Below, piece by piece: positions 9,000-26,783 of a stretch of 64,000 bases of DNA; within the stretch, counting starts at the first letter, position 1, and each line of letters begins with the position of its first letter. Source of the stretch: Vicinamibacterales bacterium (GTDB lineage Bacteria; Acidobacteriota; Vicinamibacteria; Vicinamibacterales; UBA8438); contig OZ244881.1 of NCBI GenBank assembly GCA_965221305.1, positions 4,319,505-4,383,504 on the forward strand, read 5' to 3'. The notes under the pieces are model-generated. The model was not told the origin of the DNA. It made no database searches and worked only from the letters and a program-made list of their open reading frames with translations. A program made the translations under genes and the position numbers.

Positions 9000-10012
9000 C
9001 AGGGCCTCCTCGGCGGTCGCGCCGGAGCGGTGGTCCGCCGGCGCCGCTGAATCCGGTCGGGATCCTCGTCGATGGCTTCGAGCAGGCGCTCAGCGTCCTC
9101 GCGGCTCAGCTCGCCGGGTTGCGGCTCCCCGGTCGACGGTTCCGGTTCCTGTTCCTGCTGGTTCTCCTGCTGGTTCTGCTGCTGGTTCTGCCCCTGTTCC
9201 TGCTGTTCCTGTTCCTGCTGTTCCTGCTGGTTCTGTTCCTGCTGCTGACTCTGTTGCCGCTCGTCCTGCTCCGGCTGATTCTGCGGTTGTTCCTGCTCCT
9301 GCGGCTCCTGCTGCTCGTCGGGCGGCTGCTCCTGCGGCTGATTCTCCCGGCCCTCCCGATTCTCCTGATTCTCGCCGTCGTTCTCGTCCTGCTGGTCCGA
9401 GGACTCCTGTTGCTGCTGTTGCAGCTGATCGAGGGTCAGCTCGAGGTTGTGCTTGGCGTCGATGTCCGCGGGGTCGCGGCGCAGCGCCTGCTTGTAGGCT
9501 TCGAGAGCCGGCCGAAGCTGCTGCTGCCGGTAGAGGGCGTTGCCGAGGTTGTACCAGGCCTGCGCCTCGACGACGGGGTCGCCGCTCTCGGCCGCCTCCT
9601 GGTACGCCTCCATCGCGCGCTGGAACTCCTCGGTCCGGTACAGCGCGTTCCCGTTGTTGAACGGCACGATCGACGAGTCGGGGGCCGCCCGCAGAGCCTC
9701 GAGATACTGCTCGTGGGCCTCCTCGAACCGACCCTCCTCGTACAGCCGGTTGCCGGCCTCGACCGCGCTCCGACCGGGCTGCGCGGGCGCGACGACCGGC
9801 AGCAGAAGGCCTACCAAACCGGCGAGCCCGGCCACGACGTGCACGGCCCTCGTCGGGCACGAGCGACCCTCGGCCCACCGGCGCACTCGGCGGCCCGCCA
9901 CCGCCTGCCCGGCGCCGCGCACTCGGCGGCCCGCCGCCGCCCTCGGGGCGCGGCGCAACGCGCGGCTCCACCCCGGGCTGTAACCGCGTCTCACTTGAAC
10001 CTCCCCGACCAT
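8996..10012 (-). CDS. batC: BatC-like TPR protein with long Q/E-rich acidic tail
   Basis: C-terminal part of track ORF 8996..10954, with TPRs (AGNRLYEEGRFEEAHEQYLEAL..., WYNLGNALYRQQQL...). The start is uncertain: ATG 10012 overlaps batB by 22 nt, and GTG 9844 lies directly before a signal-like VHVVAGLAGLVGLLLPVVAPA. Confidence 0.75.
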   Translation of the reverse strand: MVGEVQVRRGYSPGWSRALRRAPRAAAGRRVRGAGQAVAGRRVRRWAEGRSCPTRAVHVVAGLAGLVGLLLPVVAPAQPGRSAVEAGNRLYEEGRFEEAHEQYLEALRAAPDSSIVPFNNGNALYRTEEFQRAMEAYQEAAESGDPVVEAQAWYNLGNALYRQQQLRPALEAYKQALRRDPADIDAKHNLELTLDQLQQQQQESSDQQDENDGENQENREGRENQPQEQPPDEQQEPQEQEQPQNQPEQDERQQSQQQEQNQQEQQEQEQQEQGQNQQQNQQENQQEQEPEPSTGEPQPGELSREDAERLLEAIDEDPDRIQRRRRTTAPARPPRRPW

Positions 10013-11022
10013 TCGGTACGCACTCGTCGGCGCTCCGGTATCAGCACTTCCGCGACCAGCAGCGCGAGCGCGAGACCCAGGAAGACTTGGTACTGCTCGT
10101 CGAACAGGGTCACCTGCTCGGCCTCGAAGACCTGGCCCTCGCCCCCCGTCACCTCGGCGGCCAGCGCTTCGAGCTCGCCTCCCCCCGGCGCCACGCGGTA
10201 GTAGAGGCCGCCGGTGCGCTCGGCCATCGTCTGCAGGACGGCCTCGTCGAGCTGCGTCGTCACTACCGTGCCGTCCTCGTCCCGACGGAACCCCCGGGGG
10301 CGCCCGGCCTCGTCGAACTCGGGAATCGGCACGCCGTCGGTCGACCCGATGCCCACGGCGTAGATGCGGACCCCCGCCTCGACCGCCCGGTCGACGGCTT
10401 CCGCGACCTCTCCCTCGTGGTCCTCGCCGTCGGTGATCAGCACGAGCACCCGGTGGCGGCGCTCGGTCTCCGCGAACGCGTCGAGGGCCACCCGGACGGC
10501 CTGGCCGAGGTTCGTGCCCTGCACCGAGATCATGTTCGGGTCCATCGCGTTCAGGAACAGGGTCGCCGCCCCGTAGTCGCTCGTCAAGGGGCTCTGCACG
10601 AACGCCTCGCCCGCGAACGCGACCAGCCCGACCCGGTCGCCCTCCAGCCGGCCGATGAGGTCGGCGACGGCGAGCTTGGCCCGGTCGAGCCGGTTCGGCG
10701 CGATGTCCTCGGCCATCATCGAGGCCGACAGGTCGAGGGCCACCACGATGTCCTGCCCCTCGCGCCGCACCGTCTCGATCCGGCTCCCGAACTGCGGCCG
10801 CGCGAGCGCGGTGACGAGTAGGACCACCGCGGCGAAGAGGGCCGCGTGCTTCGCGGCCCGGCCCCGGCGGTCGACGGTAGCCGTCAACCGGTCGAGGAGA
10901 TGGCGGTCGCCGACGAGAGCCAGCGCCCGACGCGTGCGCGCGCGGGCCCACCACGCGAGCCCCGCGAGGGCCGGTACCACGAGGTACGCGAGCAGCACGT
11001 CGGCGGCGGCGAACCGGAACAT
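9991..11022 (-). CDS. batB: BatB, VWA domain membrane protein
   Basis: N-terminal TM helices, intact MIDAS DIVVALDLSASM, and a C-terminal TM segment. There is a 1-nt overlap with the batA stop. Confidence 0.9.
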   Translation of the reverse strand: MFRFAAADVLLAYLVVPALAGLAWWARARTRRALALVGDRHLLDRLTATVDRRGRAAKHAALFAAVVLLVTALARPQFGSRIETVRREGQDIVVALDLSASMMAEDIAPNRLDRAKLAVADLIGRLEGDRVGLVAFAGEAFVQSPLTSDYGAATLFLNAMDPNMISVQGTNLGQAVRVALDAFAETERRHRVLVLITDGEDHEGEVAEAVDRAVEAGVRIYAVGIGSTDGVPIPEFDEAGRPRGFRRDEDGTVVTTQLDEAVLQTMAERTGGLYYRVAPGGGELEALAAEVTGGEGQVFEAEQVTLFDEQYQVFLGLALALLVAEVLIPERRRVRTEWSGRFK

Positions 11023-12014
11023 CAGGGTATCTTTCGCAGCACCGTCCGGGCCAGCGTCATCTCCAGCAGGAGGAGGAACAAGCCCGCGGCGAGGGGCACA
11101 TGGAACAGTTCCCCGTAGCGAGTGAACTGCTCCACCTCGATCTCGGTCGTCTCCAGCGCGTCGATCTCCGCGTATATCGCCTCCAAACTCTCCCGGTCCG
11201 TCGCCCGGAAATAGCGGCCGTCGGTGATGTCCGCCGTCTCCTGCAGGGTCGGCTCGTCGATGTCTACCCGCATCTGCGCGTAGCGGCGGCCGAACAGGGG
11301 ATCGTCGACGGGCACCCGCGCCACCCCGCGCGTGCCGGCCCCGACGGCGTAGATGCGGATGTCGAGGGCCGCCGCCATCTGGGCCGCGGTGACCGGGTCG
11401 ATCTCGCCCCGGTTGTTCTGGCCGTCGGTCAACAGCACGATCACCTTCGATTCGGCCGACGAGCCTTGCAGCCGCTTGACGCCGGTGGCCAGCCCCATGC
11501 CGATGGCGGTGCCGTCATCGAGAATGCCCGTCTCGAGCTCGCCGAGCACGGTGGTCACGATGTCGTAGTCGAGGGTCAGGGGGACCTGCGTGAACGCGTC
11601 GCCGGCGAACACCACGAGGCCGATGCGGTCGTTGCGGCGGCCCTCGACGAAGTCGGCGGCCACCGCCTTGGCCGCCTCGATGCGGTTCGGCTCGAGATCT
11701 TCGGCGAGCATCGAGGTCGACAGGTCGAGGGCGAGCACGATGTCGATGCCCTCGGTGGTGACGTTCTCGGCCGTGACTCCGGTCTGGGGCCGGGCGAAGG
11801 CGACGACGAGGGCGGCGAGGCCGATGCTGCGCAGCACGAAGAGGGCGTGGCGCCAGCGCCCGGTGCCCCGCCGGTCGGCGCGGGTGACGGCGGCGAGTGA
11901 CGAGTAGCGCAGCGAACCTGTCCGCCTCCGGCCGCGCACCACGTACCACCACGCGAGCAACGGCACCCCGAGCATGAGCAGGAGACCGGTCGGGTCCGCG
12001 AACCTCAGGATCAT
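11022..12014 (-). CDS. batA: BatA, VWA domain membrane protein
   Basis: MILRFADPTGLLLMLGVPLLAWWY N-terminus, MIDAS DIVLALDLSTSM, and a C-terminal TM segment. Confidence 0.9.
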   Translation of the reverse strand: MILRFADPTGLLLMLGVPLLAWWYVVRGRRRTGSLRYSSLAAVTRADRRGTGRWRHALFVLRSIGLAALVVAFARPQTGVTAENVTTEGIDIVLALDLSTSMLAEDLEPNRIEAAKAVAADFVEGRRNDRIGLVVFAGDAFTQVPLTLDYDIVTTVLGELETGILDDGTAIGMGLATGVKRLQGSSAESKVIVLLTDGQNNRGEIDPVTAAQMAAALDIRIYAVGAGTRGVARVPVDDPLFGRRYAQMRVDIDEPTLQETADITDGRYFRATDRESLEAIYAEIDALETTEIEVEQFTRYGELFHVPLAAGLFLLLLEMTLARTVLRKIP

Positions 12015-12084
12015 GCCGCCCGCTCCATCGCCCCAATGGCGTTGCAGGACCCCGAGGCGCGCGCGGGGTCGGCGAGCCTGAGGG

Positions 12085-13302
12085 TCATGCCGTCTGCTCC
12101 GCGGGGACCGCGGCCGGCCCGGCGGGGACCGGCTCGACGGGGGCGGTGACGTCCACCACGCGGCGGGCGACGGGGAACAGCTCGCGGCACTCGGGGATGG
12201 CGGGCCGCAGCTTCGCGAACTTCACGAGGTCGCAGCGGTCGAGGAGGCGCCGCACGTCGGCGACGGCTCCGCGGTCCGCGTCGGTCCGGTGGAGGCCGTT
12301 GAGGACCGCGCCGGTGGTCATCTCCATCGCGTCGACGCCGAACCGGCCCTCGATGTAGACGCGCACGATGTCCGAGAGCCGGATGTGATACGTCTTGATC
12401 TCGCCCCGCTCCAGCATCCCCGCCGCCTCCAGGGCGTCGAGGGCCTCGCGGGCCACCTCGTGGGCCGGCCGCGGCGGCAGGGCCGGCGCCATCGCCTCCG
12501 GCTGCGACCGCCGCCGGTAGCGCCGGTAGATCCAGGCCGCAGCGGCCGCGACGGCGAGCGTGGCCGCGATCCAGGGCAACAGGGTGACGACCGCGAACGG
12601 AATCGCCAGCGGCCCCTTGATGTCGCGGATGTCGCCGCCCTCGTCCCGCCCGACGCTCTCGATGGCGACGGCCATCGCCTCCGTCGCAACGACCGTCGCG
12701 CCGCCCTCGGCGTCCACCACTTCCAATTCCAAGGGGGGAAACGACAGCTCGCCGAGGTCGAACGCGGCGACCCGCAGCTCGAGGCGCGACTCGACGCCCC
12801 CGTCGACCGCCGCCGACTGCGCGACCGGCGGGTCGAGGAGCTCGAACGGTCCGGGGTCGACGGGGTCGGGCCACCGCACCTCGGTGTCCCCGGCGTGGCG
12901 CACCGTCACCACGACGGTGATCGGGTCGCCCACGGCCGCGGTTGCGGCCGAGACGGTGGTCTCGACGACCGGCCCGATGGCCTGGGCGGGCGCCGCCGGC
13001 TGGACCTCGATCGCCTCTGCGCGGACGGCCGGCGCCACACTGACGACCGGTGCGGTCGCACGGACGGCGGGCGCTGCTCCGACGGTGGGCGCTACTCCGA
13101 CGGCGGGCGCCGATCCGACGGCGGGCGCCGACGCCTCGACGGTGGGCTCGATCGCCTGTAGGGCGGGCGTCACGGCCTGCGTGGCGGTCGCCGCCTCCCG
13201 AGCGACGGCGGACGCCGCCAAGCACGGCGCGAACGCCGCCAGGCACGGCAGGGACACCGCGGCAAGGCACGTCCTGAACGCCGCCGGCCCCCGGTTGCTC
13301 AT
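12085..13302 (-). CDS. Expanded DUF4381-like Bat-operon membrane protein (signal, A/P/V hexapeptide repeats, BatD-like Ig module, TM, DUF4381-like tail)
   Basis: It occupies the operon slot between DUF58 and batA. Module GDPITVVVTVRHAGDTEVRWPDP...ELRVAAFDLGELSFPPLELEVVD, TM LLPWIAATLAVAAAAAWIY, and tail CDLVKFAKLRP are present. The start overlaps the DUF58 stop. Confidence 0.7.
   Translation of the reverse strand: MSNRGPAAFRTCLAAVSLPCLAAFAPCLAASAVAREAATATQAVTPALQAIEPTVEASAPAVGSAPAVGVAPTVGAAPAVRATAPVVSVAPAVRAEAIEVQPAAPAQAIGPVVETTVSAATAAVGDPITVVVTVRHAGDTEVRWPDPVDPGPFELLDPPVAQSAAVDGGVESRLELRVAAFDLGELSFPPLELEVVDAEGGATVVATEAMAVAIESVGRDEGGDIRDIKGPLAIPFAVVTLLPWIAATLAVAAAAAWIYRRYRRRSQPEAMAPALPPRPAHEVAREALDALEAAGMLERGEIKTYHIRLSDIVRVYIEGRFGVDAMEMTTGAVLNGLHRTDADRGAVADVRRLLDRCDLVKFAKLRPAIPECRELFPVARRVVDVTAPVEPVPAGPAAVPAEQTA
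13061..13150. repeat. 18-bp tandem repeat x5 inside a CDS (encodes the SAPAVG-type hexapeptide repeat)
   Basis: Units read directly: cggacggcgggcgctgct / ccgacggtgggcgctact / ccgacggcgggcgccgat / ccgacggcgggcgccgac / gcctcgacggtgggctcgat. Confidence 0.8.
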
Positions 13303-14173
13303 CGGAACCGTTTCGCCCGCTCCCGAAAGAACCGCATGAGCCGATCGACGTAGGGCCGGTCCGTCGTGATCTCCACCACGTCCACCCCGGTCTGTCGGAA
13401 CTCCCGCTCCCTGGCCTCCCGCGCCTCCGCCACCTCGCGGTCGAACGCCCGGCGGAACGCCGGGTCCGACACGTTCACCGTGAGCCGATCACCGGTCTCG
13501 GCGTCCTCCAGGTCGAGGTAGCCCACCGGCGGCAGCGCGTGCTCGCGGGGGTCGCTGATACGTATGACGACGGTATCGTGCCGGCGGCCGGCCACCGCCA
13601 GGGCCCGCCGGTAGCCGCCCGCGAGGAAGTCGGAGACCACGAACGTCACCGCGCGGCGCCGCACCACCCGGACGAGGTACTCCAGCGCCCCGGCGATGTC
13701 GGTGCCCCGCCCCGCCGGCTCGAAGTAGAGCAGCTCGCGCAGCACGCGCAGGACGTGGCGGCGCCCCTTGCGGGGCGGCACGAACTTCTCGATGCGGTCG
13801 CTGAAGATGATCAGCCCCACTTTGTCGTTGTTGGTGATGGCCGAGAACGCGAGCACCGCGCATATCTCGACCGCGACCTCGCCCTTCATGCGTCCGGACG
13901 AGCCGAAGTCGCCCGAGGCGCTCACGTCGACGACGAGCATCACCGTCAGCTCGCGCTCCTCGTCGAACACCTTGACGAAAGGGGCGCCGGTCCGCGCGGT
14001 GACGTTCCAGTCGATGTTGCGGATGTCGTCGCCGTAGTGGTACTCGCGCACCTCGGCGAAGTTCATGCCGCGGCCCTTGAACACCGAGTGGTACTCGCCC
14101 GAGAAGACCTCGTTGACGAGGCCCCGGGTGGCGATTTCGACCCGGCGGACCTGGCGGAGGATATCTCGTGCTA

Positions 14174-14177
<4 letters not shown>
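13299..14177 (-). CDS. DUF58 family protein (MoxR partner, VWA-like)
   Basis: Motifs SGEYHSVFKGRGMNFAEVREYHYGDDIRNIDWNVTAR and LVVDVSASGDF. There is a 4-nt overlap with the moxR stop. Confidence 0.9.
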
Positions 14178-15163
<986 letters not shown>

Positions 15164-15372
15164 GGTGGTGTCGTCGGGCGCGTTCTCCGATCGACCCTCT
15201 ATTGTAGGAAACCCGGCGGCCGGTCCCCAGTCCGCGGGCGGAATCGCCCGGAATCGCCTCCGACCCCCGGTCGCCGGCGACGCGCCGCCGGTCTTGCGAG
15301 GCAACCGGCGAACGCCGCCCCGGCCGCGCCCCGCGTGCCGCCGTTCCGTCGGACGATTCGGACGTGGGGAAC

Positions 15373-15497
15373 GGCCGGCGACGCATCCGCGGCAACGCCC
15401 GGCCGCGTCGCCGACGAGGGTCGGGGCCTGCGGGGCACGGCACCATGTCCCGCCGCGGCGCGGAACGTGCGGCCGCGTCGCCGGCGAAGGTCGGGCC
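15373..15497. repeat. 27-28-nt direct repeat pair plus an inverted partial copy, upstream of the Bat operon
   Basis: ggccgcgtcgccgacgagggtcggggcc (15401-15428) and ggccgcgtcgccggcgaaggtcgggcc (15471-15497). The inverse ggccggcgacgc lies at 15373-15384. Confidence 0.6.
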
Positions 15498-15511
15498 GTT
15501 CGCGGCTGCGG

Positions 15512-15973
15512 TCAGCGGACGGGAAAGAAGATGTCGGTGCGCCACTTCTCGGGGTCCGGCTCCCGGCCGGGGTCGGTGACGTAGACCTCCCACGGGGCCC
15601 CGGCGGGCTCGAGTCCCTCCGACTTCATCCACGCCGTCAGCGCCTCCCACGTGTGCCGAAGCTGCTCGTAGTGGCCGGTGTGGGTGACGGTCGCCGCCTT
15701 GCCGCAGGGCAGCTCGCCGGCCCGGATGCGGTCCGTGCCGGCCATCGGGGAGGCGACGGGCATGCCGCACTCGAGATCGACGGCGCCGCCGTGCATCTCG
15801 TGGTAGATGGCGAAGGGCATCCCCGCCGGGGCCTGCCCGCTCTGCTGCACGTACGCGTGCAGCTCGCCGAAGAGCATCCCCATGGTCTCCGCCATCTTGT
15901 CCATGGTGGTCTTGGTCCGGATGCCCACCATGGGCTGCGCCTCCAACCGCGTCGTCCCGAACTCCGATGTCAT
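15512..15973 (-). CDS. GyrI-like small-molecule-binding domain protein
   Basis: Start MTSEFGTTRLE (ATG 15973). Pattern ...VTHTGHYEQLRHTWEALTAWMKSEGL...PWEVYVTDPGREPDPEKWRTDIFFPV is typical of GyrI-like/AraC effector-binding domains. Confidence 0.75.
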   Translation of the reverse strand: MTSEFGTTRLEAQPMVGIRTKTTMDKMAETMGMLFGELHAYVQQSGQAPAGMPFAIYHEMHGGAVDLECGMPVASPMAGTDRIRAGELPCGKAATVTHTGHYEQLRHTWEALTAWMKSEGLEPAGAPWEVYVTDPGREPDPEKWRTDIFFPVR

Positions 15974-16073
15974 GCGCTGGTCCTCCTCGATCTGCGGTCG
16001 TGTCTCCGGGGTGGCGTCCCATCCGGGTGCGCGACGGCTCCGTGAACCTGGAAAGTTATCGGAATCCGATTGA

Positions 16074-16514
16074 CGCGTCCAACCCGACGCCGTCGGCACC
16101 GGGGAAATGGAGCGCAACGGGTACGTGTCCCGGCGCAAGCTGCACTACATGCTGCGCCTCGTGCCGTTCGTCGAGAAGAACTTCAACGCCGTGGAGCTCG
16201 GCCAACGCGGCACCGGAAAGAGCTTCGTCTACCAGCCGCTCAGCCCGTACTGCCATCTCGTGTCCGGCGGACAGACCACCACCGCCCAGATGTTCGTCAA
16301 CCTCGCGTCGGGCCAGCGGGGGCTGGTCTGCCTGTGGGACGTCGTAGCGTTCGACGAGGCGGCCGGGGTCCGCTTCACGGACCGCAGCGGCCTCGACATC
16401 ATGAAGGGCTACCTGGAGGACGGCGCGTTCAGCCGCGGCCGGGACGTGATCACGACCGAGCGATCAAGCCGCGGTCAAGAGTCCGATTCTGTCCACGGAC
16501 GGCTCCGGATATAG
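16074..16514 (+). pseudogene. brxL: Internal fragment of BrxL (BREX Lon-like AAA+ protein)
   Basis: Translation LRLVPFVEKNFNAVELGQRGTGKSFVYQPLSPYCHLVSGGQTTTAQMFVNLASGQRGLVCLWDVVAFDEAAGVRFTDRSGLDIMKGYLEDGAFSRGRDVITTE matches the Walker A/B core of BrxL as I remember it. Only about 130 of roughly 650-700 aa are present. The frame opens just after TGA 16071-16073 and similarity decays before the stop. Confidence 0.7.
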
Positions 16515-16610
16515 CTTGGCATCGCGCACGAATAATGGGGGGCGTAATGCAGGGTGCGCTTTTCTTTGATTCAATAACCTGTTTTTTTTGAATCACTTAC
16601 AGGAAGTGAG
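16515..16610. other. AT-rich junction between the BrxL fragment and the tRNA-Ser 3' end (possible integration scar)
   Basis: Composition is locally low-GC. It has a T8 run (16583-16590), the 7-bp inverted repeat tgattca/tgaatca (16567-16573 / 16589-16595), and a cacttac-agg-aagtgag hairpin abutting the tRNA CCA end. Confidence 0.4.
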
Positions 16611-16700
16611 TGGCGGAGAGAGTGGGATTCGAACCCACGGTAGGGTTTCCCCTACACACGCTTTCCAAGCGTGCTCCTTAAACCGCTCGGACATCTCTCC
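16611..16700 (-). tRNA. tRNA-Ser (anticodon GGA), CCA encoded
   Basis: The reverse complement GGAGAGATGTCCGAGCGGTTTAAGGAGCACGCTTGGAAAGCGTGTGTAGGGGAAACCCTACCGTGGGTTCGAATCCCACTCTCTCCGCCA folds by hand. It has a 7-bp acceptor stem, anticodon loop TTGGAAA, a long variable arm, and a GGTTCGAATCC T-loop. Confidence 0.92.
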
Positions 16701-16968
16701 AGTAGCGGGGCTTGCACCGCCACGTCCAGTCTAGCATGGGTGCTCGCGCGTCTCGGGGCCGACTCCGGCGGGGCGGGGCGGTCGATCGGTACGGGGTCTC
16801 GGCCGGCGGCCGGGGAACCGGACCCTTCGTCGCCGGTCCGAGGCGCGGGCGGTCCCGGGGGGGCGCGATGCGCCGAGGGTCGGCGGCCGGCAGGCGGCCG
16901 GGTCCCTTGTCGCAGGGGAGCCGACGGCGGCGTCGTCGGCCGGGCGGGCCCGGGGCGGGGCCGGCTGC

Positions 16969-16997
16969 TTGATCGGCCCTGGGGCTGACGGTACACT
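16969..16997 (+). promoter_or_regulatory. Candidate sigma70-type promoter for ffs
   Basis: TTGATC (16969-16974), a 17-nt spacer, then TACACT (16992-16997), placed about 25 nt before the predicted SRP RNA terminal helix. Confidence 0.35.
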
Positions 16998-17020
16998 GAG
17001 CCTGCCGCTGGCCGATCGAG

Positions 17021-17180
17021 GGGGCGGCTACCGTCCAGGACGGCGGCGGGTCGCGGCGCGGCTCGGACCCTGTGCAATCTCAGCCTACGAACCGCGTCAG
17101 GGCCGGAAGGCAGCAGCGCTAAGTAGTCACTGACATGTGCCGCAGGCTTTCCGGGTCGCGGCTGGGACTCGTCGCCCCCG
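17021..17180 (+). ncRNA. ffs: Signal recognition particle RNA (4.5S-type, ends approximate)
   Basis: The hallmark domain IV sequence GUCAGGGCCGGAAGGCAGCAGC lies at 17096-17117 (E. coli has GUCAGGUCCGGAAGGAAGCAGC). Hand-pairing of flanking segments gives a rod-like helix. A terminal GGGGGCG/CGCCCCC pairing lies at 17021-17027/17174-17180. The locus sits directly upstream of dnaX, a common synteny. Confidence 0.7.
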
Positions 17181-17186
17181 CACCGC

Positions 17187-19373
17187 ATGGCCTATCAGGT
17201 TCTCGCCCGCAAGTGGCGGCCCCAACGGTTCGACGACGTCATCGGCCAGCGCGGGGTCACCCAGACCCTGTGCAACGCCATCGCCCGCGAGCGGGTGGCC
17301 CAGGCGTTCGTGTTCGCGGGGCCGCGCGGCGTCGGCAAGACCACGACGGCGCGCATTCTCGCCCGTGCCCTGAACTGCGTCGAGGGGCCGACGGCGGACC
17401 CGTGCGGGGAATGCGACGTCTGCCGCGAGGTGGCCGAGGGGCGCGACATCGACGTACTGGAGATCGACGCCGCCACCCACACCCAGGTCGACAACGTCCG
17501 CGAGGTGATCATCTCGGGGCTGTCCATCGCCCCCGTGCGCGACCGCCACAAGGTGTTCATCATCGACGAGGTGCACCAGCTCTCGTCCAGCTCGTTCAAC
17601 GCCCTGCTGAAGTCGGTCGAGGAGCCGCCGCCGCACGTGGTCTTCATCATGGCGACGACCCTGCTCGACAAGATTCCCGACACGATCCTCTCGCGCTCGC
17701 AGGTCTTCGAGTTCCGCACCATCGGCGTCGCCGCCATCGTCGAGCAGCTCCGGCGGATCGTCGAGGCGGAGGGGGTCGCCATCGACGACGCGGGGCTCGC
17801 CCTCGTCGCCCGCACCGCCAACGGGAGCATGCGCGATGCCGAGAGCGCGCTCGACCAGGTCATCGCCTTCGCCGGAGAGTCGGTCGGCGCCGAGGACGTG
17901 TCGGCAGTGCTCGGGCTTGTGGGTCGCGATGCGGTCCTCGACTTGGCCGAGACGGTGGCGGCGGAGACGGCTGACCGGGTCTTCGACCTGGCCGGCCGCT
18001 TCGTCGAGGCGGGGTACGACCTGCGCTCGGTCTGCCGCGAGCTCGCCCGGCTCGTGCGCGACCTGATGGTGCTGAAGGTGGACCCGCGCCGCATCGGCGA
18101 TCAGGAGATCGCCGCCGATGCCGAACGCGACCGGCTGCAGGCCTTGGCGGGTCGGTTCTCGCCGGAGGATCTGCTGCGCGGGTTCGACGTGCTGTCTCGG
18201 GCCGAGCTCGACATCCGCAGCGCGACGCAGCCGCGCTACCACTTCGAGATGGCGATGCTGCGCTGGATCCATCTGCGCGGGCTCGTGCCGCTGACGGAGC
18301 TGCTCGGCGGGGCCGGCGGGATCGAGCCGGCGCGGCCGGGTTCCGCGCGAACCAGCGTCCGCCCGGAACAGGGCGGGTCGCCGCCGCGGCGCGCCCGGCC
18401 GGCGGCGGCGAGGCCGGCGCCCCCAGGCGCGCCGCCGCCCCAGGCCTCGCCCGGCGCTGCCGCGAGCCCGACGCCGATCCCGGCCGCAACCGCGCCGACG
18501 GGCGCCGGGGGGGACGCCGCCGCCGCTTCCGCAACCGCGCCGGCCGCCGGGTCGGCCGGCGGCCTGAAGGAGCGTTTCCTCGCCGAGCTGCAGCGCAGGA
18601 AGAGGACCTTCCACGGGATTGTGGCCGCCCAGGCCCGTGCCATCGAGGTGGGCGAGGGGCGGATTACCTTCGTCTTCGACGGCGGGCAACGCACCCTGGC
18701 ACAGCAGGCCGAGAAGGGCCGTTCGTGGCTCGAGCCGTTGGCCGGCCAGGTGGCGGGACGGGAGATGACGGTGGTCGTCCGGCAGGTCGATGGGCCGGCC
18801 TCTCCGGGCGAGCCGGGGGAGGCCGAGACAAGAAGCGGTCTGCAGCAGCCGGTCCTGACGGAGCCGCAGCCCCCGACCGGGTCTCCGGGCGATCTCGACT
18901 CCTCGTCCTCCGAGTCACCGGTGGAGCCGGGGCCGACGTCGGGTCTCGAGTCCTCGCTGCTCGGGTCGCCGGTGCGGCCCGCCCCTCCGGCGTCGCCGCC
19001 CGATCGACCGGCGCCGCCGGCCGGCCTCGAGGCTCCGGCCGATTCGGGGTCGTCGCCCGGTCTCGCACCGCCGGGCGACCCCGACTCGCCGCCGTTCGGG
19101 GCGCAGTCCGCCTTCCTGCCCTCACCGGAGCCGGTGGCGGACCCCGGTTCGCCGCTCGGGTCGCCGGTGCAGTCGGGATCCCCGCCGCCGGCCCGGTCGC
19201 CGGCGCGGCCCGCCCCCGCGCGTCCGGCTTCGCAGGCGCCGTCCGGCTCCTCCGCCCCGTCGCAGGAGCCGGGGAAGACGGGCGACCTGCTCGCGCAGGC
19301 GATGGACGACCCCGCGGTACAGACCATGCTCGAGGTGTTTCCGGCCGAGATCAAGAAGATCGAAGAGATGTGA
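17187..19373 (+). CDS. dnaX: DNA polymerase III subunit gamma/tau
   Basis: Walker [10 protein letters not shown], Zn module [10 protein letters not shown], and SRC-type motifs. A long P/S/A-rich linker is followed by the conserved C-terminal [21 protein letters not shown]. Confidence 0.92.
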
Positions 19374-19378
19374 CCGCC

Positions 19379-19690
19379 ATGAACATCCAGAAAATGATGC
19401 AGCAGGCGCAGCAGATGCAGGAGAACCTGCAGAAGCAGCTCCGGGAGGCGACGGTCGAGGCGACGGCGGGCGGCGGCATGGTGACCGTCGTCATGAACGG
19501 CGTCAAGGAGATACAGCGCCTGCGCATCGATCCCGAGGTGGTGTCGCCCGACGACGTGGAGATGCTGCAGGACCTCATCGTGGCGGCGGTGAGCGACGCC
19601 CAGCGTCGCGCCGACGAGCTCGCCTCCGAGCGCATGGGCGGCATGATGGGGGGCATGACCGGCGGGCTCAAGATTCCGGGGCTCTCGTGA
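19379..19690 (+). CDS. ybaB: YbaB/EbfC nucleoid-associated protein
   Basis: Sequence [55 protein letters not shown]... at ATG 19379, in frame with track ORF 18725..19690. It keeps dnaX-ybaB-recR synteny. Confidence 0.9.
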
Positions 19691-19706
19691 TCCGGCCGGA
19701 AGCGCC

Positions 19707-20303
19707 ATGATGCGAATCGAGCCCCTCGTGCGGTTGACCGGCGAGCTCCGGAAGCTGCCGGGCATCGGGGCCAAGAGCGCCCAGCGGATCGCCTTCCATC
19801 TCCTGGGCCGGTCGCGCGAGGAGGCCGACCAGCTCTGCGACGCCATTCGTGACGTCAAGGAGCGGATCGTCCACTGCTCGGTGTGCTCGAACATCACCGA
19901 CTGCAACCCGTGCTTCTACTGCACCGACGCAGGGCGCGACCGGCGTGTGCTGTGCGTAGTGGAAGATCCTCACAACGTCGACGCCATCGAGAAGACCGGC
20001 GACTTCAAGGGCGCCTACCACGTGCTGATGGGGGCGTTGTCGCCCCTGAAGGGCATCGGTCCCGACGACCTGCAGATCGCGGGGCTGCTCGATCGGGTCG
20101 GCGGCGGAGGGGTCGCCGAGGTGATTCTCGCCACCAATCCCAACGTCGAGGGCGAGGCGACGGCCATCTACTTGGCGAGGCTGCTCAAGCCGCTCGGGGT
20201 CCGGGTCAGCCGCATCGCTATGGGGGTGCCGGTGGGGAGCGACCTCGAGTACGCCGACGAGGTCACCATGCTCAAGGCGATCGAGGGCCGTCGCGAGATG
20301 TAG
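19707..20303 (+). CDS. recR: Recombination protein RecR
   Basis: HhH N-terminus, C4 zinc finger [16 protein letters not shown], and Toprim/Walker-like region. Confidence 0.95.
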
Positions 20304-22077
20304 GCCCGGGCGCTCGGGCGGCGAGCTCCTCGAGCAGGGCCGCGGTGGCGGGCGCCCGATCCGCGCCGCCACCGGCCAGAGCCGTTCGCAGCTCGGCGAG
20401 GTCCGCCGCGTCGTCGACGTCGCGCCACGGCTCGAGGAGCTCGACCCGGAGTCCGCACCGCTGCGCCGCGGCCACGGTGTCGGCGCGGGTCCACGGGCCG
20501 CTCCACCGGATGCCGGTGAACAGGTCCGGCACCGCGTCTCCGGGCCGGGGCCGGGCGAGGCCGATCAGGTAGTAGCCGCCGTCGGCGGCGGGGCCCAGCA
20601 CGACCGTGTCGGGCTCCGCGGCGAGCCGGGCCAGCGCCTCGTCCACGCGGTCCGGCGGCAACCCCGGCAGATCGGAGCCGGTCGCCACCACCGGCGAGAA
20701 CCCCTCCCGGAACAGGTCCTCGAAGACCCCGCGCTCTCGCTCGCCGAGGTCGGCGCCCCGCTGCGGCATCAGCTCGCCGTCGGCGACCCCGGCCCCGGCG
20801 AACCCGTGCGGTCCGCCGTCCGGGGTGTAGGCGACCCGGAGGGCGGCCCCTTCCACACGGCGGCATGCCGAGACGACGTCCGTCACGAACGCCTCGTACA
20901 GCCGCCGCCGCTCCTGCTCGTCCGGGAGCACGCCGGCCAACCGCGTCTTCGGCGGCCGCCCCCCGCGGGGAGAGCGCGCCATCACCACCACCGCCGCGCC
21001 GCGCGGCCCGACGACGGCGCCGGCGCCGTCTCGCAGGGCCCGGAGGCCCCGGCGGGCCAGCAGCCCGACGCCGGCCGTCATCCAGACCAGCATCCGCGCC
21101 TTCCGCACGATGGCGAGGGTGACCCCGGCGGCGCCGCCGTACCCCAGCAGCTCGGCCACCGCGGCGGTGCCCGCCTCGTCCACCCCGATGCGCAGGGGGA
21201 CGATCTTGAATGCGGCGGCGAGGAGGCGGTTCGCCGACTCGAAGACGAACGCGTCGATCAGGGTCGGCGACACGTCGCCGATGGCGGCGAGGACGAGGTA
21301 GGTCTCGACGACGGCGAGGCCGTGGAAGCTCAGCTCCCAGCCCGCCAAGACGGCGAGCCGGCGGGGCGCCCGCGGGTACAGCTCGTGCACTCGGTCTTCG
21401 ATCCCGCGCGCCCGTGTGGCCCAGCCCTCGATCCGGCTGGCAGCCCCGGCTCGTTGCGCGGCGGCGCCGAGGAGACGGCTGACGGGGCGCAGGCGCCGCC
21501 AGATGATCCCGTGCACGACGGCGACGAGCAGGACGAGCGTCGTCGCCAGTACCGCGCCGGGCGTCGGCCAACTCTCGGCCGGGCCGAACCGCAGGGCCAC
21601 GGCGACCGCCCCGCCGGCGACGACGAGCGCCGCCGACAGGGTGAAGAAGAGGTTCTCGACGGCGAGGGCGGGCAGGGTGCGAGACACGGGCTCGCGGTCG
21701 TCCACGAACAGCGCCTTCGCCGGCTCCCCGACGAGGGGGCCCAGGGGGGTCAGATTCCCCGCGGTATCGCCCGCGACCGTGGCCCGGAACGCGTGCTGCC
21801 GGGTCAGGCGGTGCGGGTGGTCGAGGCAACCGCGCCAGGCGAGGGCGCGCGCCGCGAGCCGCAGGCCGCCGAGGCCCGCGACGGCAACGAAGATCCAGCC
21901 GAGGCGGCCGACGCCCGCCGCGATCTCCGCGATCCCGGCGCGCTGTACGAAGTAGACGAACAGGACCCCGCCCGCCGTCGCCGCGGCCAGGGCCGGCAGC
22001 GACCAGAGCCCCGGCCGGCCGGCCGGTGCGGCAAGGTCGCGCGCCGTGTGTTGCGGCGTCTCGACATGCCCCGTCAT
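20272..22077 (-). CDS. Fusion protein: UPF0104 (lysyl-PG synthase TM-region-like) membrane domain + DUF2064/TIGR04282-like glycosyltransferase domain
   Basis: The N-terminal ~330 aa are polytopic ([24 protein letters not shown]...). The C-terminal ~260 aa carry [19 protein letters not shown]...[11 protein letters not shown]...[15 protein letters not shown]..., typical of DUF2064. The 3' end overlaps the recR 3' end by 32 nt. Confidence 0.7.
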
Positions 22078-22086
22078 AATGCGTGA

Positions 22087-22707
22087 ATGGCCTTCCTGTC
22101 GCCGCAGGTCGTGGCGGCGGTCATTCTACTCGCCGGCGGGCTGGCGGCTTGTTTCCTCGGCTACCGGTTGTTTCGTTGGCTGCTCGTCTTGTACGGGTTC
22201 GCGGGGGGGGCCTACGCCACGTCGCTGTTCGTCGGCACGTTGTCCCCGTGGGCCTCGGCCGGGGTAGTCGTTCTGGGGGGGCTGGCCGGCGCCGCGGTAT
22301 TGCTGGTGCTCTATCTCGCCGCGGTGGCGGTGGCGGGCGCCGCGGTCGGGGTGTTGGTTCTCAATCTCTCGTCGGCCCCGGCCGGCGGCGACCCCGAGGC
22401 CTGGATGGTGATTCTCGCATGCCTCGTCGGCGCGAGCCTCGCCGTCGTGCTGCAACGCTACGTCATCATCGTGGGGACCTCCTTCGGGGGCGCGTGGACG
22501 GCCCTCGTCGGCGCCCTCGCCCTCGTGGGACACCCCGGCGCGCAGGCCGTGACCGACGGTGACCTGTGGCAGATGTATCCGCTCGCCCCGGCGCGGGGCC
22601 AAGTGCCGTTCGCCGTCGGGTGGTTGAGCCTGGGGCTGCTGGCCGCGCTGTGGCAGCTTCTGGGAGCACGGGCGGCGAAGCCGTCGCCGGCGGACGGAGA
22701 CGTTTGA
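22087..22707 (+). CDS. DUF4203 (TMEM198-like) multi-pass membrane protein
   Basis: Gly/Ala-rich TM helices and an N-terminal GGLAACFLGYRLFRWLLVLYGFAGG pattern. Confidence 0.65.
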   Translation: MAFLSPQVVAAVILLAGGLAACFLGYRLFRWLLVLYGFAGGAYATSLFVGTLSPWASAGVVVLGGLAGAAVLLVLYLAAVAVAGAAVGVLVLNLSSAPAGGDPEAWMVILACLVGASLAVVLQRYVIIVGTSFGGAWTALVGALALVGHPGAQAVTDGDLWQMYPLAPARGQVPFAVGWLSLGLLAALWQLLGARAAKPSPADGDV

Positions 22708-22733
22708 CGCTGCGGGCCGCCGTGCTCTAAAAT
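22704..22733 (+). promoter_or_regulatory. Candidate promoter for tRNA-Asn
   Basis: TTGACG (22704-22709), an 18-nt spacer, then TAAAAT (22728-22733), about 65 nt upstream of the tRNA. Confidence 0.4.
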
Positions 22734-22799
22734 CATCACTTGGTTCGGCGCGCCCGATCACCCGCACCGGGGCGCCGGGCCGAGCGCGCTGCCGCGTGT

Positions 22800-22875
22800 T
22801 CCTCAGTAGCTCAATTGGCAGAGCATCCGGCTGTTAACCGGAGGGTTGTTGGTTCGAGTCCAACCTGAGGAGCCA
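22800..22875 (+). tRNA. tRNA-Asn (anticodon GTT), CCA encoded
   Basis: TCCTCAGTAGCTCAATTGGCAGAGCATCCGGCTGTTAACCGGAGGGTTGTTGGTTCGAGTCCAACCTGAGGAGCCA folds by hand as a cloverleaf with anticodon loop CTGTTAA. Confidence 0.93.
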
Positions 22876-23022
22876 TCCCCGACAAGTCGTCGAGCGAGTC
22901 GACCAGAACAGCATGTACCAGGCGCCGAGCTGGCTCCGTCGACCGGCGTCCGCGCCGGGGCCGCACCGGGCGACGGCATAACGCCCGCGAGAATGGGGCG
23001 CCGATCCTCGTGGAGGTGCGAG

Positions 23023-24024
23023 ATGTGGCGAGTGCTCGTGTTCCTCGCGTCGGTGTTGGGTCTTGTCAGCGGGCACCCTCTCGGCGCCCAGACCGCCCCC
23101 ACCTGCGATCCCGCCGGAGACGTGAAGTTCGTCTGCGGGACGACCAATCCAGAGGATCTCTACGCGGTTCCGGGCGCCCCGTGGGTAATCGCATCGGGAC
23201 GATACTCCGCTTCGGAGGGGCCCGTCTACGCGGTGGACCTTCGTGATCACAGCGCCCGGGAGATCTTTCCCGCGGGAGCGTTGCCGCCGGAGCACGACCG
23301 CGATACCTATGGCGCCTGCCCCGGTCCGAACGCCGTTTTCCAGCCGCACGGACTGACCCTGCGGGAGGGTGGCGGCGATGTGCACACACTCTACGTGGTC
23401 GGCCATGGCGCGCGCGAGGCCATCGAGGTCTTTGCACTGGATGTCGGCGGCGCCGTGCCCACAATGAAGTGGATCGGGTGCATTCCGGCACCGGAGGGCA
23501 CCGCCCGCATCAACTCCATCACGGCGCTGCCGGACGGCCATCTCGGCGCAACGAACTTCGACCGCGAAGGCGGGGAGCTCTGGGAATGGCATCCCGCGAC
23601 GGGCTGGGTCGAAGTGCCCGGCAGCCGGATGCCCGGTCCCAACGGTCTCGTGTCCTCGGATGACGGGCAGTGGTTCTACATCGGGGGCTGGAGCGATCGG
23701 GCCCTGGTGCGGCTGTCGCGCGGCCGGAGTCCGGTGCGCGTCGACCGGATTCCGGTTGGCTTCAACGTCGACAACGTGCGCTGGGGGCCCGATGGCAAAG
23801 TCATCGCCGCCGGTCACGTGACCCGGTGTGAAGACGTCGATCCCTGTGAGCTGTCGGCCGCCCGCGTGGCGGACGTCGACCCGACGACGTTCGAGGTTCG
23901 GCAGCTGGTGGACTACAAGGGAAACGAGTTCTTCCAGCTCGGCACCGTGGCCATCGAGGTGAATGACGAGATCTGGATTGGCGGGATCAGGGGGAGCTAC
24001 GGGATCGCCCGATTCCCACGCTGA
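23023..24024 (+). CDS. Secreted six-bladed beta-propeller protein (SMP-30/gluconolactonase/paraoxonase-like)
   Basis: ATG 23023 follows GGAGGTG at 23012-23018. Signal peptide MWRVLVFLASVLGLVSG and propeller-like repeats are present. The family assignment is from general resemblance only. Confidence 0.55.
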   Translation: MWRVLVFLASVLGLVSGHPLGAQTAPTCDPAGDVKFVCGTTNPEDLYAVPGAPWVIASGRYSASEGPVYAVDLRDHSAREIFPAGALPPEHDRDTYGACPGPNAVFQPHGLTLREGGGDVHTLYVVGHGAREAIEVFALDVGGAVPTMKWIGCIPAPEGTARINSITALPDGHLGATNFDREGGELWEWHPATGWVEVPGSRMPGPNGLVSSDDGQWFYIGGWSDRALVRLSRGRSPVRVDRIPVGFNVDNVRWGPDGKVIAAGHVTRCEDVDPCELSAARVADVDPTTFEVRQLVDYKGNEFFQLGTVAIEVNDEIWIGGIRGSYGIARFPR

Positions 24025-24061
24025 TCCCGTCGCGGCGCCCGGCGCGGGTATCATTCGCTTC

Positions 24062-24850
24062 ATGGACGTCGTCCGCATGGGTTCGCGCCGGTCGGCGGCC
24101 GCGGCCGCGTTACTGCTCGCCGCGCCGGCCGGGGCGGTGGCGCAGACGGAGTTCCACTTCCAGTACGGGAGGTTCGTCAACCCGTTCTCGGGAGAGCGAC
24201 ACTACGCGCGGGTGCTCACCTTTCAGCAGGCATCGAGCTGGTCGCTCGGCGACAGCTTCTTCTTCCTGGACTGGACCGACGACGGCGGTGGGGACGGGTT
24301 CAACGAGAAGGGCATGTACGGCGAGTGGTACCCGACCCTGAGTCTGGGCCGGGTCGCGAACCGCACGATCGGGGCGGGACCCCTCCGGGACGTGGCTCTC
24401 ATCGGCGGGTTGAACTTCGGCAACGACGCCGACATCTTCAAGGTCGTGCCCGGCGGGCGGCTCTCGTGGGACGTGCCGGGGTTCTTCTTCGTCAACACCG
24501 ATTTCGGCGCCGCCTTCGACAAGAGCTCGGGGGTCGAGAGTGGCGGGGCCCCGCGGGCCGGCGTCAGCTTCGTCATGGACGTCAACTGGGGCGCCGCGTT
24601 CGACGTCGGCTCACAGTCGTTTCTGTTCGCTGGGCACGCGAAGTACGAAGGCGCCAGGACCAACGAGCTGGGCCACCCGGTCAAGGCCTCGCTCCTCGCG
24701 CAGCCGCAGCTCGGCTGGGACGTCGGCAAGGCAACGACCGGCCACGCCGGCCAGCTCTTCCTCGGGGTGGAGTACCAGTACTGGCGGAACAAGCTCGGCG
24801 TGGACGACGGCGACAACGTCGCCCAGTTCTGGCTGATGTGGCGGCTGTGA
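24062..24850 (+). CDS. Tsx/OmpK-family outer-membrane channel
   Basis: Signal peptide, alternating beta-strand pattern, LGVEYQYWRNKLG motif, and an aromatic C-terminus (FWLMWRL). Confidence 0.65.
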   Translation: MDVVRMGSRRSAAAAALLLAAPAGAVAQTEFHFQYGRFVNPFSGERHYARVLTFQQASSWSLGDSFFFLDWTDDGGGDGFNEKGMYGEWYPTLSLGRVANRTIGAGPLRDVALIGGLNFGNDADIFKVVPGGRLSWDVPGFFFVNTDFGAAFDKSSGVESGGAPRAGVSFVMDVNWGAAFDVGSQSFLFAGHAKYEGARTNELGHPVKASLLAQPQLGWDVGKATTGHAGQLFLGVEYQYWRNKLGVDDGDNVAQFWLMWRL

Positions 24851-24860
24851 CCCATGGCGG

Positions 24861-24997
24861 TGCGTCCGCCTGCCCGACCCCGAGTCGGCCGGGACGGGCG
24901 GGTCGACCCGGTATTGCGTTGCGCCCGTCTGCCCGACCCGAGTCGCCGGGACGGGCGGGTCGACCCGGTATTGCGGTGCGCCCGCCTGCCCGACGCC
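24861..24997. repeat. REP-like palindromic unit, 57-59 bp, about 2.4 tandem copies
   Basis: Units start at 24861, 24920 and 24977 (partial): tgcg(t/c)ccg(c/t)ctgcccgac(c)ccgagtcg(g)ccgggacgggcgggtcgacccggtattgcg. CCCGCC/GGCGGG arms can pair. The repeat lies between convergent genes. Confidence 0.75.
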
Positions 24998-25122
24998 CTC
25001 CCAGTCACATGCGGCGGAAACACCAGGACGTCGGCGGCGCAGGAGCATGCGGCTCGAGCGCGTTCGACGTCCACGAATGAGCCCGCGGCGAAAACGGCGG
25101 CGATGGCCGGGCGCCCACGGCG

Positions 25123-26421
25123 TCAGTCGACGATCGCCTGGTAGACGAGGGACCGCACCTTCTGCTGATCGTCGAGGCCGATGGCCGGGATGATCTGCGT
25201 CAGGTAGACCACCACCATCTCCTCCTTCGGGTCGGCCCAGTAGGTGGAGTGGTAGGCGCCGCCCCAGCCGAACTCGCCGACCGACCCGGGCAGGCCGGCG
25301 GCGGCGGGGTCGTGGGTGATCGAGAAGCCGAGGCCGAAGCCTTGGCCAGGGCGGAACGGAATGCCGCCGAGGTGGTCGCTCAGCATCGACTCGACGGTCT
25401 TGCGCGAGAGGATGCGGGTGCCGTCGAGCTCGCCGCCGTTCAGCATCATCTGCAGGAACGTGGCGTAGTCGGTGGCCGTCGACAGCAGGCCGGCGCCGGC
25501 CGAGAACGCCTTGCGGGGGCCGTTCACGTAGTGCCCCTGGCCGACCATGTGGCCGGGGTCGGGGGCCCGCTCGATGCGGCTGCCGCCGTCGACCGACGAG
25601 TAGACGGTGGCGAGCCGGCCCAGCTTGCCGTCGGGCAGGAAGAAGTGGGTGTCGTTCATCCCGAGCGGCTCGAACACGCGCTCGGTCAGGAACTCGCCGA
25701 GGGTCTGGCCGCTGATCTTCTCGATCATCGCGCCGAGGATGTCGGTGTTGTAGCCGTAGACCCACCGCTCGCCGGGGTGGGCGTCCATCGGCAGCTCGGC
25801 GAGGCGCGCCATCGTCTCGCCCACCGTCTCGTCGCGGTCGGCGAAGTACCAGCCGGTGATGCCCGCCTCTTCCCATGCGTCGGCGGCGGCCCCGCGGTTG
25901 GCGAGCAGGCCCATGCCGTAGCTGATGCCGGCGGTGTGGGTGAGGAGGTCGCGGATGGTGACGGGCCGGCGGGCCGGCGCCACGTCGTAGCCGCCCTCGT
26001 CGTTAGGCTCGGCCACGGTCGTCTCCGCGAACGCGGGTAGGTACTTGCCGACGGGGTCGGTGATCAGCAGCCTGCCTTCCTCCTGAAGCAGCATGACCCC
26101 GACGCTGGCGAGCGCCTTCGTCTGCGACGCGATGCGGAAGATGCCGTCCGACGGCATCGGCGCCTCGGCCTCGACGTCGCGGTAGCCGATGCCCTCGCGG
26201 TACGCGATCTTGCCGCGCCGGACGACGATGGTGACGGCGCCGGCGAGCCGCCCCTCGTCGACGAGGCTCTCGAGGGCGAGGCTCAGGCGGTCGAGCCGCT
26301 CCGACGACATCCCCACCTCTTCCGGCTCGACCCGCTCCAGCCCCTGGGCGGCTCCGGTCCGGGGCACGAACAGCAGCGCGAACACGATGGCGAGCGCCGT
26401 CAGGCGAATGCGTGATCTCAT
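25123..26421 (-). CDS. Serine hydrolase, beta-lactamase/PBP family, exported
   Basis: Signal peptide MRSRIRLTALAIVFALLF and SxxK motif in FRIASQTKALASVGVMLL. It shares DY..F.QMMLNGGELDG.R with 1068..2381. Confidence 0.85.
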   Translation of the reverse strand: MRSRIRLTALAIVFALLFVPRTGAAQGLERVEPEEVGMSSERLDRLSLALESLVDEGRLAGAVTIVVRRGKIAYREGIGYRDVEAEAPMPSDGIFRIASQTKALASVGVMLLQEEGRLLITDPVGKYLPAFAETTVAEPNDEGGYDVAPARRPVTIRDLLTHTAGISYGMGLLANRGAAADAWEEAGITGWYFADRDETVGETMARLAELPMDAHPGERWVYGYNTDILGAMIEKISGQTLGEFLTERVFEPLGMNDTHFFLPDGKLGRLATVYSSVDGGSRIERAPDPGHMVGQGHYVNGPRKAFSAGAGLLSTATDYATFLQMMLNGGELDGTRILSRKTVESMLSDHLGGIPFRPGQGFGLGFSITHDPAAAGLPGSVGEFGWGGAYHSTYWADPKEEMVVVYLTQIIPAIGLDDQQKVRSLVYQAIVD

Positions 26422-26729
26422 GGCGTTACCTCTGTCCCTTCGTCGATCTCGACTGGTGAGTTGCGGAACGCGGATTCCTGGCCCCCATGATAGCCCGTGA
26501 CGGCGGTCGCGCGCGTAGCGCGGCCCGCGGCAACCGCGGGACGGTCACCGAGCCCGCATCCGCTCGCACCAGTCGCGAAGCGCCGGCCGGTCCGCGGCGA
26601 AGTCCTCGCGGTAGAACGCGAAGGGCCTGCCGCCGCACGCGTTCGACTGCGGGCTGCAGAAGGACCTACCGGAGCACGTCGCCCACCCGCGGAGAAAACG
26701 CGGCGGATCAGGGCGCGGAGTCGGCGCGG

Positions 26730-26757
26730 TTGACATCTATATAAGTTTTTATATACT
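26730..26757 (+). promoter_or_regulatory. Strong sigma70-like promoter with overlapping palindromic operator, for the padR operon
   Basis: TTGACA (26730-26735), a 16-nt spacer, then TATACT (26752-26757). An inverted repeat TATATAA-gttt-TTATATA (26738-26755) lies within it. It sits in a ~48-bp stretch of about 20% GC. Confidence 0.6.
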
Positions 26758-26783
26758 AACTATATCATTATTGATGTAGTCAC

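Follow-up and report, generated by a model that had tools for sequence, protein, structure and literature searches.

The window (the whole 64,000-nucleotide stretch of DNA that was analyzed) has a GC content of 72%. A DnaX scan across species-representative genomes assigned the host to the Vicinamibacterales (Acidobacteriota). DnaX was 92 to 94% identical in nine loci (L004 to L012), and the genomes closest to the window were all metagenome-assembled genomes (MAGs). A short open reading frame (ORF) with similarity to BrxL, the Lon-related AAA+ protein of the anti-phage BREX system, lies between a gene for a GyrI-like small-molecule-binding protein and tRNA-Ser(GGA). The GyrI-like gene (positions 15512 to 15973, minus strand, 153 aa; Pfam PF06445, E = 1.7e-23) is a conserved host gene of the left flank, which also holds a MoxR ATPase gene and a DUF58/VWA cluster and is kept in relatives. 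GyrI-like orthologs with 75 to 95% identity were present in L005 to L009, L011, and L164 to L166, and a search with the GyrI-like protein returned no match closer than 94% identity. The MoxR and GyrI-like genes are separated by a GC-rich spacer, which carries a 43-nt direct repeat (15394 to 15436 and 15464 to 15506; 81% identical, 70 nt apart).

On the right, tRNA-Ser(GGA) (16611 to 16700, minus strand) was identified by ARAGORN and by Rfam RF00005 (57 bits), with its 3' (CCA) end towards the fragment. The signal recognition particle (SRP) RNA gene (17061 to 17159, plus strand; Rfam RF00169, 71.8 bits) anchors this flank and is followed by dnaX (17187 to 19373) and then recR. The order tRNA-Ser(GGA), SRP RNA, dnaX is common to relatives. 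At two positions, the tRNA of the window is unlike that of any of the 15 aligned relatives: a G for A in the variable arm, which makes a G-U pair G-C, and an A for C in the D-loop (plus strand as written). Farther downstream lies the most AT-rich spot of the window (26688 to 26831; minimum, 34% GC), which reads TTGACATCTATATAAGTTTTTATATACTAACTATATCATTATTGATGTAGTCAC. It is located directly upstream of a PadR-family regulator gene (26784 to 27401), divergent from a beta-lactamase-family gene, and is probably a PadR promoter or operator.

Analysis of the host intergenic region left of the ORF (15974 to 16106) revealed collinearity with L005, L006, L007, L011, L164, and L166. The region includes a Shine-Dalgarno-like GGGGAA motif that precedes the ATG of the ORF. 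A conserved element at about 16049 to 16088 (CTGGAAAGTTATCGGAATCCGATTGACG..CAACC) is positioned between the GyrI-like gene and the divergent small ORF that relatives carry at this site. The equivalent element in L005, L006, L011, and L164 reads CTGGAAAGTTATCGGAATCCG-N5/6-CGGATTCAACC and contains a 7-bp palindrome, GAATCCG-N5/6-CGGATTC, the right half of which is degenerate in the window (CGCGTCC). The motif GTTAACAT, which comes next after the palindromic element in L006, L007, and L011, is gone from the window. The palindromic element is probably an operator.

An internal brxL segment in a chimeric ORF

The translation of positions 16074 to 16514 matched the Pfam family BrxL_ATPase (PF13337) with an E value of 3.2e-48 and 164.6 bits (cut-off, 25), covering profile positions 39 to 158 of 313. 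The NCBIfam model TIGR02653 was matched at positions 192 to 310 of 675 with 152 bits (cut-off, 628) and TIGR02688 with 136 bits (cut-off, 329); the curated whole-protein cut-offs of these equivalog models were not reached. The PADLOC model for BrxL (PDLC02506) was also matched (E = 9e-54). The brxC, pglX, pglZ, and brxL genes of the type 1 BREX system from a Deinococcus wulumuqiensis plasmid were used as tblastn queries. Residues 194 to 313 of the full-length Deinococcus BrxL aligned with positions 16107 to 16466 at 54% identity, free of gaps and stops. For brxC, pglX, and pglZ, no match was obtained across the 64-kb window, in agreement with the first-pass annotation, which had reported no other BREX gene.

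The limits of homology were set at 16122 and 16466 by comparison at the DNA level and by in-register codon comparison with the closest fragments. The brxL-derived segment (16122 to 16466, plus strand) comprises 115 codons and corresponds to BrxL residues ~199 to 313 of ~676. It runs from Walker A (GQRGTGKS) to Walker B (VAFDE) and slightly past it. The match to the BrxL core claimed in the first-pass annotation was therefore retained, with its length corrected from about 130 to about 115 codons. BrxL is built from an N-terminal domain (residues 1 to 146), an AAA+ domain (~170 to 469), and a Lon-like C-terminal domain (498 to 679), and the DNA-loading BrxL ring requires the N-terminal domain, a complete AAA+ domain, and the C-terminal domain (PMC10164562). 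This three-domain architecture is absent here: the N-terminal domain, the distal half of the AAA+ domain, and the Lon-like domain are missing, as the loss of both terminal parts had been described before. The fragment cannot form the ring because it retains only ~40% of the AAA+ domain, without either terminal domain. It is derived from a BrxL gene and is not itself a BrxL.

The segment is embedded in a chimeric ORF of 135 aa (16107 to 16514, plus strand), which consists of four host codons, a junction codon, the 115 BrxL codons, 16 read-through codons, and a stop. The first four codons, ATG GAG CGC AAC (16107 to 16118, plus strand), encode the MERN of a host small ORF. L006, L164, and L166 have an identical 12-mer at the equivalent position, and in these loci it opens an ORF of 53 to 59 aa (MERN[T/A]TL..LVS..SAIG..). 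The window is collinear with these three loci from the start codon of the GyrI-like gene to ATGGAGCGCAAC and departs from them after codon 4; from the TAC at 16122 onward, its register is that of brxL in L001 and L002. The left junction thus lies at 16118 to 16122, where host codon 4 is joined in frame to BrxL codon ~199. An in-frame join of this kind supports a deletion, of which it is the expected leftover. The small hydrophobic ORF (MERN[T/A]TL.T.LQ.LT.LVS..SAIG.LI..) is kept in several Vicinamibacterales and has no Pfam match on record. It is located at L006:3336-3515, a partial copy follows the receptor gene at L007:7465-7596, and its position relative to a TonB-dependent receptor gene varies among genomes.

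The right junction is at 16466/16467, where BrxL homology ends; the 16-codon tail of the ORF (SSRGQESDSVHGRLRI) is unrelated to BrxL. A segment of 144 nt (16467 to 16610) separates the end of BrxL homology from the tRNA, and the stop codon of the ORF lies 96 nt from the tRNA 3' end, so that the reported proximity of the fragment to this end was borne out. Comparison of the 144-nt segment with more than 160 related or BREX loci, IS-bearing contigs, and cargo proteins yielded nothing beyond chance 13-mers, and the segment is sourceless in these comparisons. The AT-rich character of the spacer, its T8 run, and its inverted repeat were likewise recovered. The last 80 nt before the tRNA (16531 to 16610) have a GC content of 40%, and only 0.07% of the 80-nt windows in the stretch are as low. 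Apart from the T8 at 16582 to 16589, the window contains no stretch of at least eight A/T. The inverted repeat TGATTCAATAA/TTTTTGAATCA (16567 to 16577 and 16585 to 16595) is complementary at 10 of 11 positions. A weak terminator-like hairpin (16537 to 16564, plus strand) was found, with 0.5 expected by chance. A search for a sigma-70-like promoter in the spacer found none, and RNA folding of the spacer was unremarkable (z = +1.05). The resemblance of the AT-rich tRNA flank to that of L019 was considered as a shared island end and was rejected, the similarity being weak (z = 3.4) and insufficient.

Homologs, composition, and constraint

A metagenome scan identified 80 loci with 78 to 87% amino acid identity to the fragment. 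Nearly all of them carry a full-length brxL (~676 aa) that closes a pglX-pglZ-brxL operon of type 1 BREX, and their genomes have GC contents of 48 to 67%. In L156, a complete pglX-pglZ-brxL set (L156:9380-12922) is followed, 1.4 kb beyond brxL, by a minus-strand tRNA-Ser(CGA); a 270-aa ORF without a Pfam match lies between them. L156 is an intact example of the geometry proposed for the ancestor of the window. The two closest database proteins (84 to 85% identity; L001 and L002) are themselves pieces of brxL, located directly next to IS transposases in unrelated surroundings and with breakpoints that differ from those of the window.

A protein search that listed only matches shorter than 260 aa had prompted the idea that short BrxL-ATPase proteins form a real family. 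This idea was rejected: the proteins derive from frameshifted gene calls and end in out-of-frame tails, and the cluster of one 211-aa representative includes a member of 683 aa. Many public "BrxL" proteins of 150 to 250 aa, one of them RefSeq-named, begin at internal methionines and end in Arg/Pro/Ala-rich out-of-frame tails (P0018, P0050, P0053, P0055, P0061, P0066, P0069, and P0104). Such entries are frameshifted calls of full-length brxL, which probably stem from error-prone assemblies or from real pseudogenes.

The third-codon-position GC content (GC3) of the fragment is 0.94, equal to that of host genes and higher than in 80 of 80 homologs (maximum, 0.90). In L001 and L002, it is 0.84 and 0.70, with a contig GC content of 0.60. 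The host-like value indicates prolonged residence of the gene in a high-GC lineage, either before or since it was broken.

Comparison with 61 distinct intact homologs revealed that six of the 68 columns invariant among them are altered in the fragment; any intact homolog is altered in at most one. The six changes include the Walker A proline (GPRGTGKS to GQRGTGKS); the GKS of Walker A and the DE of Walker B are kept. This comparison shows that constraint on the fragment is relaxed. Pairwise codon comparison gave 38 synonymous and 12 nonsynonymous differences between the window and L001, 43 and 10 between the window and L002, and 45 and 8 between L001 and L002. By three-way subtraction, the branch of the window carries ~7 nonsynonymous and ~18 synonymous changes, and those of the two nearest relatives carry 3 to 5 and 20 to 25, respectively. 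The nonsynonymous share is thus higher on the window branch than on that of either L001 or L002. The exact 135-aa protein forms a one-member cluster. Together with the relaxed constraint and with the lack of BrxL at the 80 species-level loci described below, this answers the objection that the ORF could be a conserved small gene.

The slot before tRNA-Ser(GGA) in relatives

The interval between the GyrI-like gene and tRNA-Ser(GGA) measures 637 bp in the window. Six close relatives have intervals of 2.0, 4.4, 5.5, 6.2, 6.3, and 7.1 kb, and in three others the interval exceeds 9.3 kb, so that the tRNA flank has no fixed synteny. In L166, a TonB-dependent receptor gene directly abuts tRNA-Ser, SRP RNA, and dnaX, and no insert is present. 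A TonB-dependent receptor of ~1,100 aa is encoded in L005, L006, L007, and L011; behind it comes a GNAT gene, an alpha/beta hydrolase gene, or an Hsp70 fragment. The receptor and GNAT genes of the closest relatives have no ortholog at the locus in the window.

Other relatives hold defense and mobile genes at the same position. L004 has HsdM beside the tRNA, an MNT/HEPN-like pair, a DDE transposase, and a tyrosine integrase; L008 has an HsdM_N-only fragment, a PemK toxin, and an AbiEii-like nucleotidyltransferase. The cargo is AbiEii in L012, a DUF3987 protein in L019, and two transposases in L164. In L008, the ORF limited to the HsdM N-terminal domain occupies L008:8659-9393 (minus strand), and HsdM is full length in L004 (528 aa). 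The Hsp70 fragment of L007 occupies L007:8232-8972 (plus strand), and L010 has a 559-aa Hsp70-like gene. Gene decay is recurrent at this tRNA-proximal slot. The variable lengths and the mobile and defense cargo among relatives indicate that the slot is a fast-turnover hotspot, which collects truncated genes. An apparent tRNA fragment in L013 was discarded as a data artifact; no tRNA was called there because a masked run of N (L013:128-484) covers most of the tRNA-Ser gene.

The first-pass annotation had proposed looking for an intact island at the tRNA-Ser locus of related genomes and for a direct repeat of the tRNA 3' half. Neither an intact BREX island nor such a repeat came to light. BrxL or other BREX genes were found at this site in 0 of 80 species-level dnaX/tRNA-Ser loci and in 0 of 3 further loci. 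A search for further copies of the tRNA 3' end (16 to 30 nt, at most 5 mismatches) found none in the window or in the 10-kb flanks of the 80 relatives' loci. A Pfam scan detected no integrase between the GyrI-like gene and the tRNA, an interval too short to contain one, or among the neighboring genes from 9991 to 29225. Of the features that characterize tRNA islands, the locus therefore has the direct siting at the tRNA 3' end and, among close relatives, variable content between conserved flanks; the tRNA 3' direct repeat (window and relatives' flanks) and the integrase (interval and 9991 to 29225) are missing. Base composition is divided, with 40% GC in the 80 nt beside the tRNA, yet a host-like GC3 in the BrxL piece. 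An integrase may have inserted a BREX island at the tRNA, and the AT-rich spacer may represent a junction scar; the insertion itself is unproven because no att repeat was found. What the data support is a BREX locus in a variable slot beside the tRNA that was later deleted. The history proposed in the annotation is supported to this extent. The three refutation tests that accompanied that proposal all favored a relic.

Origin of the fragment and known systems

Most probably, the segment is what deletions have left of a type 1 BREX operon that was resident in a variable hotspot; the segment is inert and was joined in frame to a host start codon by chance. A complete BREX operon would once have occupied the slot before the 3' flank of tRNA-Ser(GGA), with brxL as its last gene, read towards the tRNA. 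The left border of this ancestral slot would have been the host small ORF or the TonB-dependent receptor gene. One deletion would have brought brxL codon ~199 next to codon 4 of the small ORF; the receptor gene, the BREX genes upstream of brxL, and the 5'-terminal 30% of brxL itself would have been lost in the same event. Another break would have taken brxL from codon ~314 on and left the 144 nt, partly AT-rich, beside the tRNA. Both the order and the number of these deletions are inferred from the present arrangement. The 135-codon ORF would thereby inherit the start codon and ribosome-binding motif of the small ORF, and the fragment would play no part in defense and would be drifting.

The absence of BREX from this site in all of the 80 + 3 sampled loci of relatives speaks against a resident operon, as do the missing att-type repeat, the lack of an integrase in the interval and from 9991 to 29225, and the 144 nt on the right that matched no source. 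The absence from relatives would fit with import of a brxL piece that was already truncated, as mobile-element debris or as filler taken up in the repair of one large deletion, in which case a complete operon was never here. The fragments beside IS transposases in L001 and L002, the two closest sequences, point the same way, as does the uptake of many different imports by the locus. Such an import is nevertheless unlikely, given that the GC3 of the fragment is host-like and those of L001 and L002 are lower, that the left join to the host gene is clean, without an IS end or foreign DNA, and that the breakpoints of L001 and L002 are unlike those of the window. The MAG origin of all closest genomes might suggest an assembly artifact, such as a chimeric join in a metagenome-derived genome. 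An artifact would require misjoins at two points separated by 345 bp, one of which would have to be precisely in frame; both flanks are collinear with relatives, only ~490 bp between them are foreign, and the codon usage of the fragment is that of the host. We regard it as the least probable of the explanations considered.

Scarcely more probable is a working small gene, newly born and expressed from the promoter and start codon of the small ORF. Its truncated P-loop product might block incoming BREX-like systems as a decoy or act as a nucleotide-binding regulator. A skeptic could argue for selection from the absence of any stop or frameshift in 115 codons and from the in-frame position behind a real start codon, which is conserved and preceded by the GGGGAA motif, as well as from the retained GKS and DE of the Walker motifs. 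The open frame of 135 codons is weak evidence, however, because stop-free windows of this length are common at 72% GC: 36% of all 135-codon windows in the six frames of this sequence are stop-free, and the prior for an in-frame fusion is one in three. Furthermore, the ORF is a singleton without an ortholog, six invariant positions are altered, ~60% of the AAA+ fold has been lost together with the two flanking domains, and the last 16 codons are unrelated read-through. Nor do the short BrxL "proteins" in the database, being frameshifted calls, provide a family to which it could belong. The favored explanation thus remains a remnant left by deletion of a BREX operon once resident here.

The fragment is relevant to annotation hygiene, as the ORF is liable to be named "BrxL" or "hypothetical protein" and to be counted as a BREX component in defense surveys. 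The Vicinamibacterales are an under-studied soil clade, in which this slot turns over defense and mobile genes fast and gathers truncated relics. The slot before the tRNA-Ser(GGA)-SRP RNA-dnaX block could serve as a landmark for defense cargo in this order.

Compared with the BrxL of type 1 BREX, the fragment shows 54% identity to the Deinococcus protein, 78 to 87% identity to full-length metagenomic proteins, and the GKS and DE of the Walker motifs, but it comprises 115 of ~676 residues, has mutated invariant residues, and lacks BREX neighbors. Islands adjacent to tRNA genes and defense hotspots have been described in enterobacteria and pseudomonads. The slot resembles these in the variable restriction-modification, toxin-antitoxin, Abi, integrase, and transposase cargo and in the truncated genes found among relatives. 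It differs from them in that no att duplication was found at any locus and no integrase at the fragment of the window, and in that some of its cargo is ordinary metabolic or transport genes (TonB-dependent receptor, GNAT, and hydrolase). The closest likeness is to pseudogene remnants generated by deletion, with which the fragment shares an internal piece of a gene, two breakpoints, fusion to the start of a neighbor, and relaxed selection. Nothing sets it apart from these except that the fusion is exactly in frame and that stops are absent, the latter being due to the high GC content. The feature is of a kind that is already well known, an ordinary dead gene remnant.
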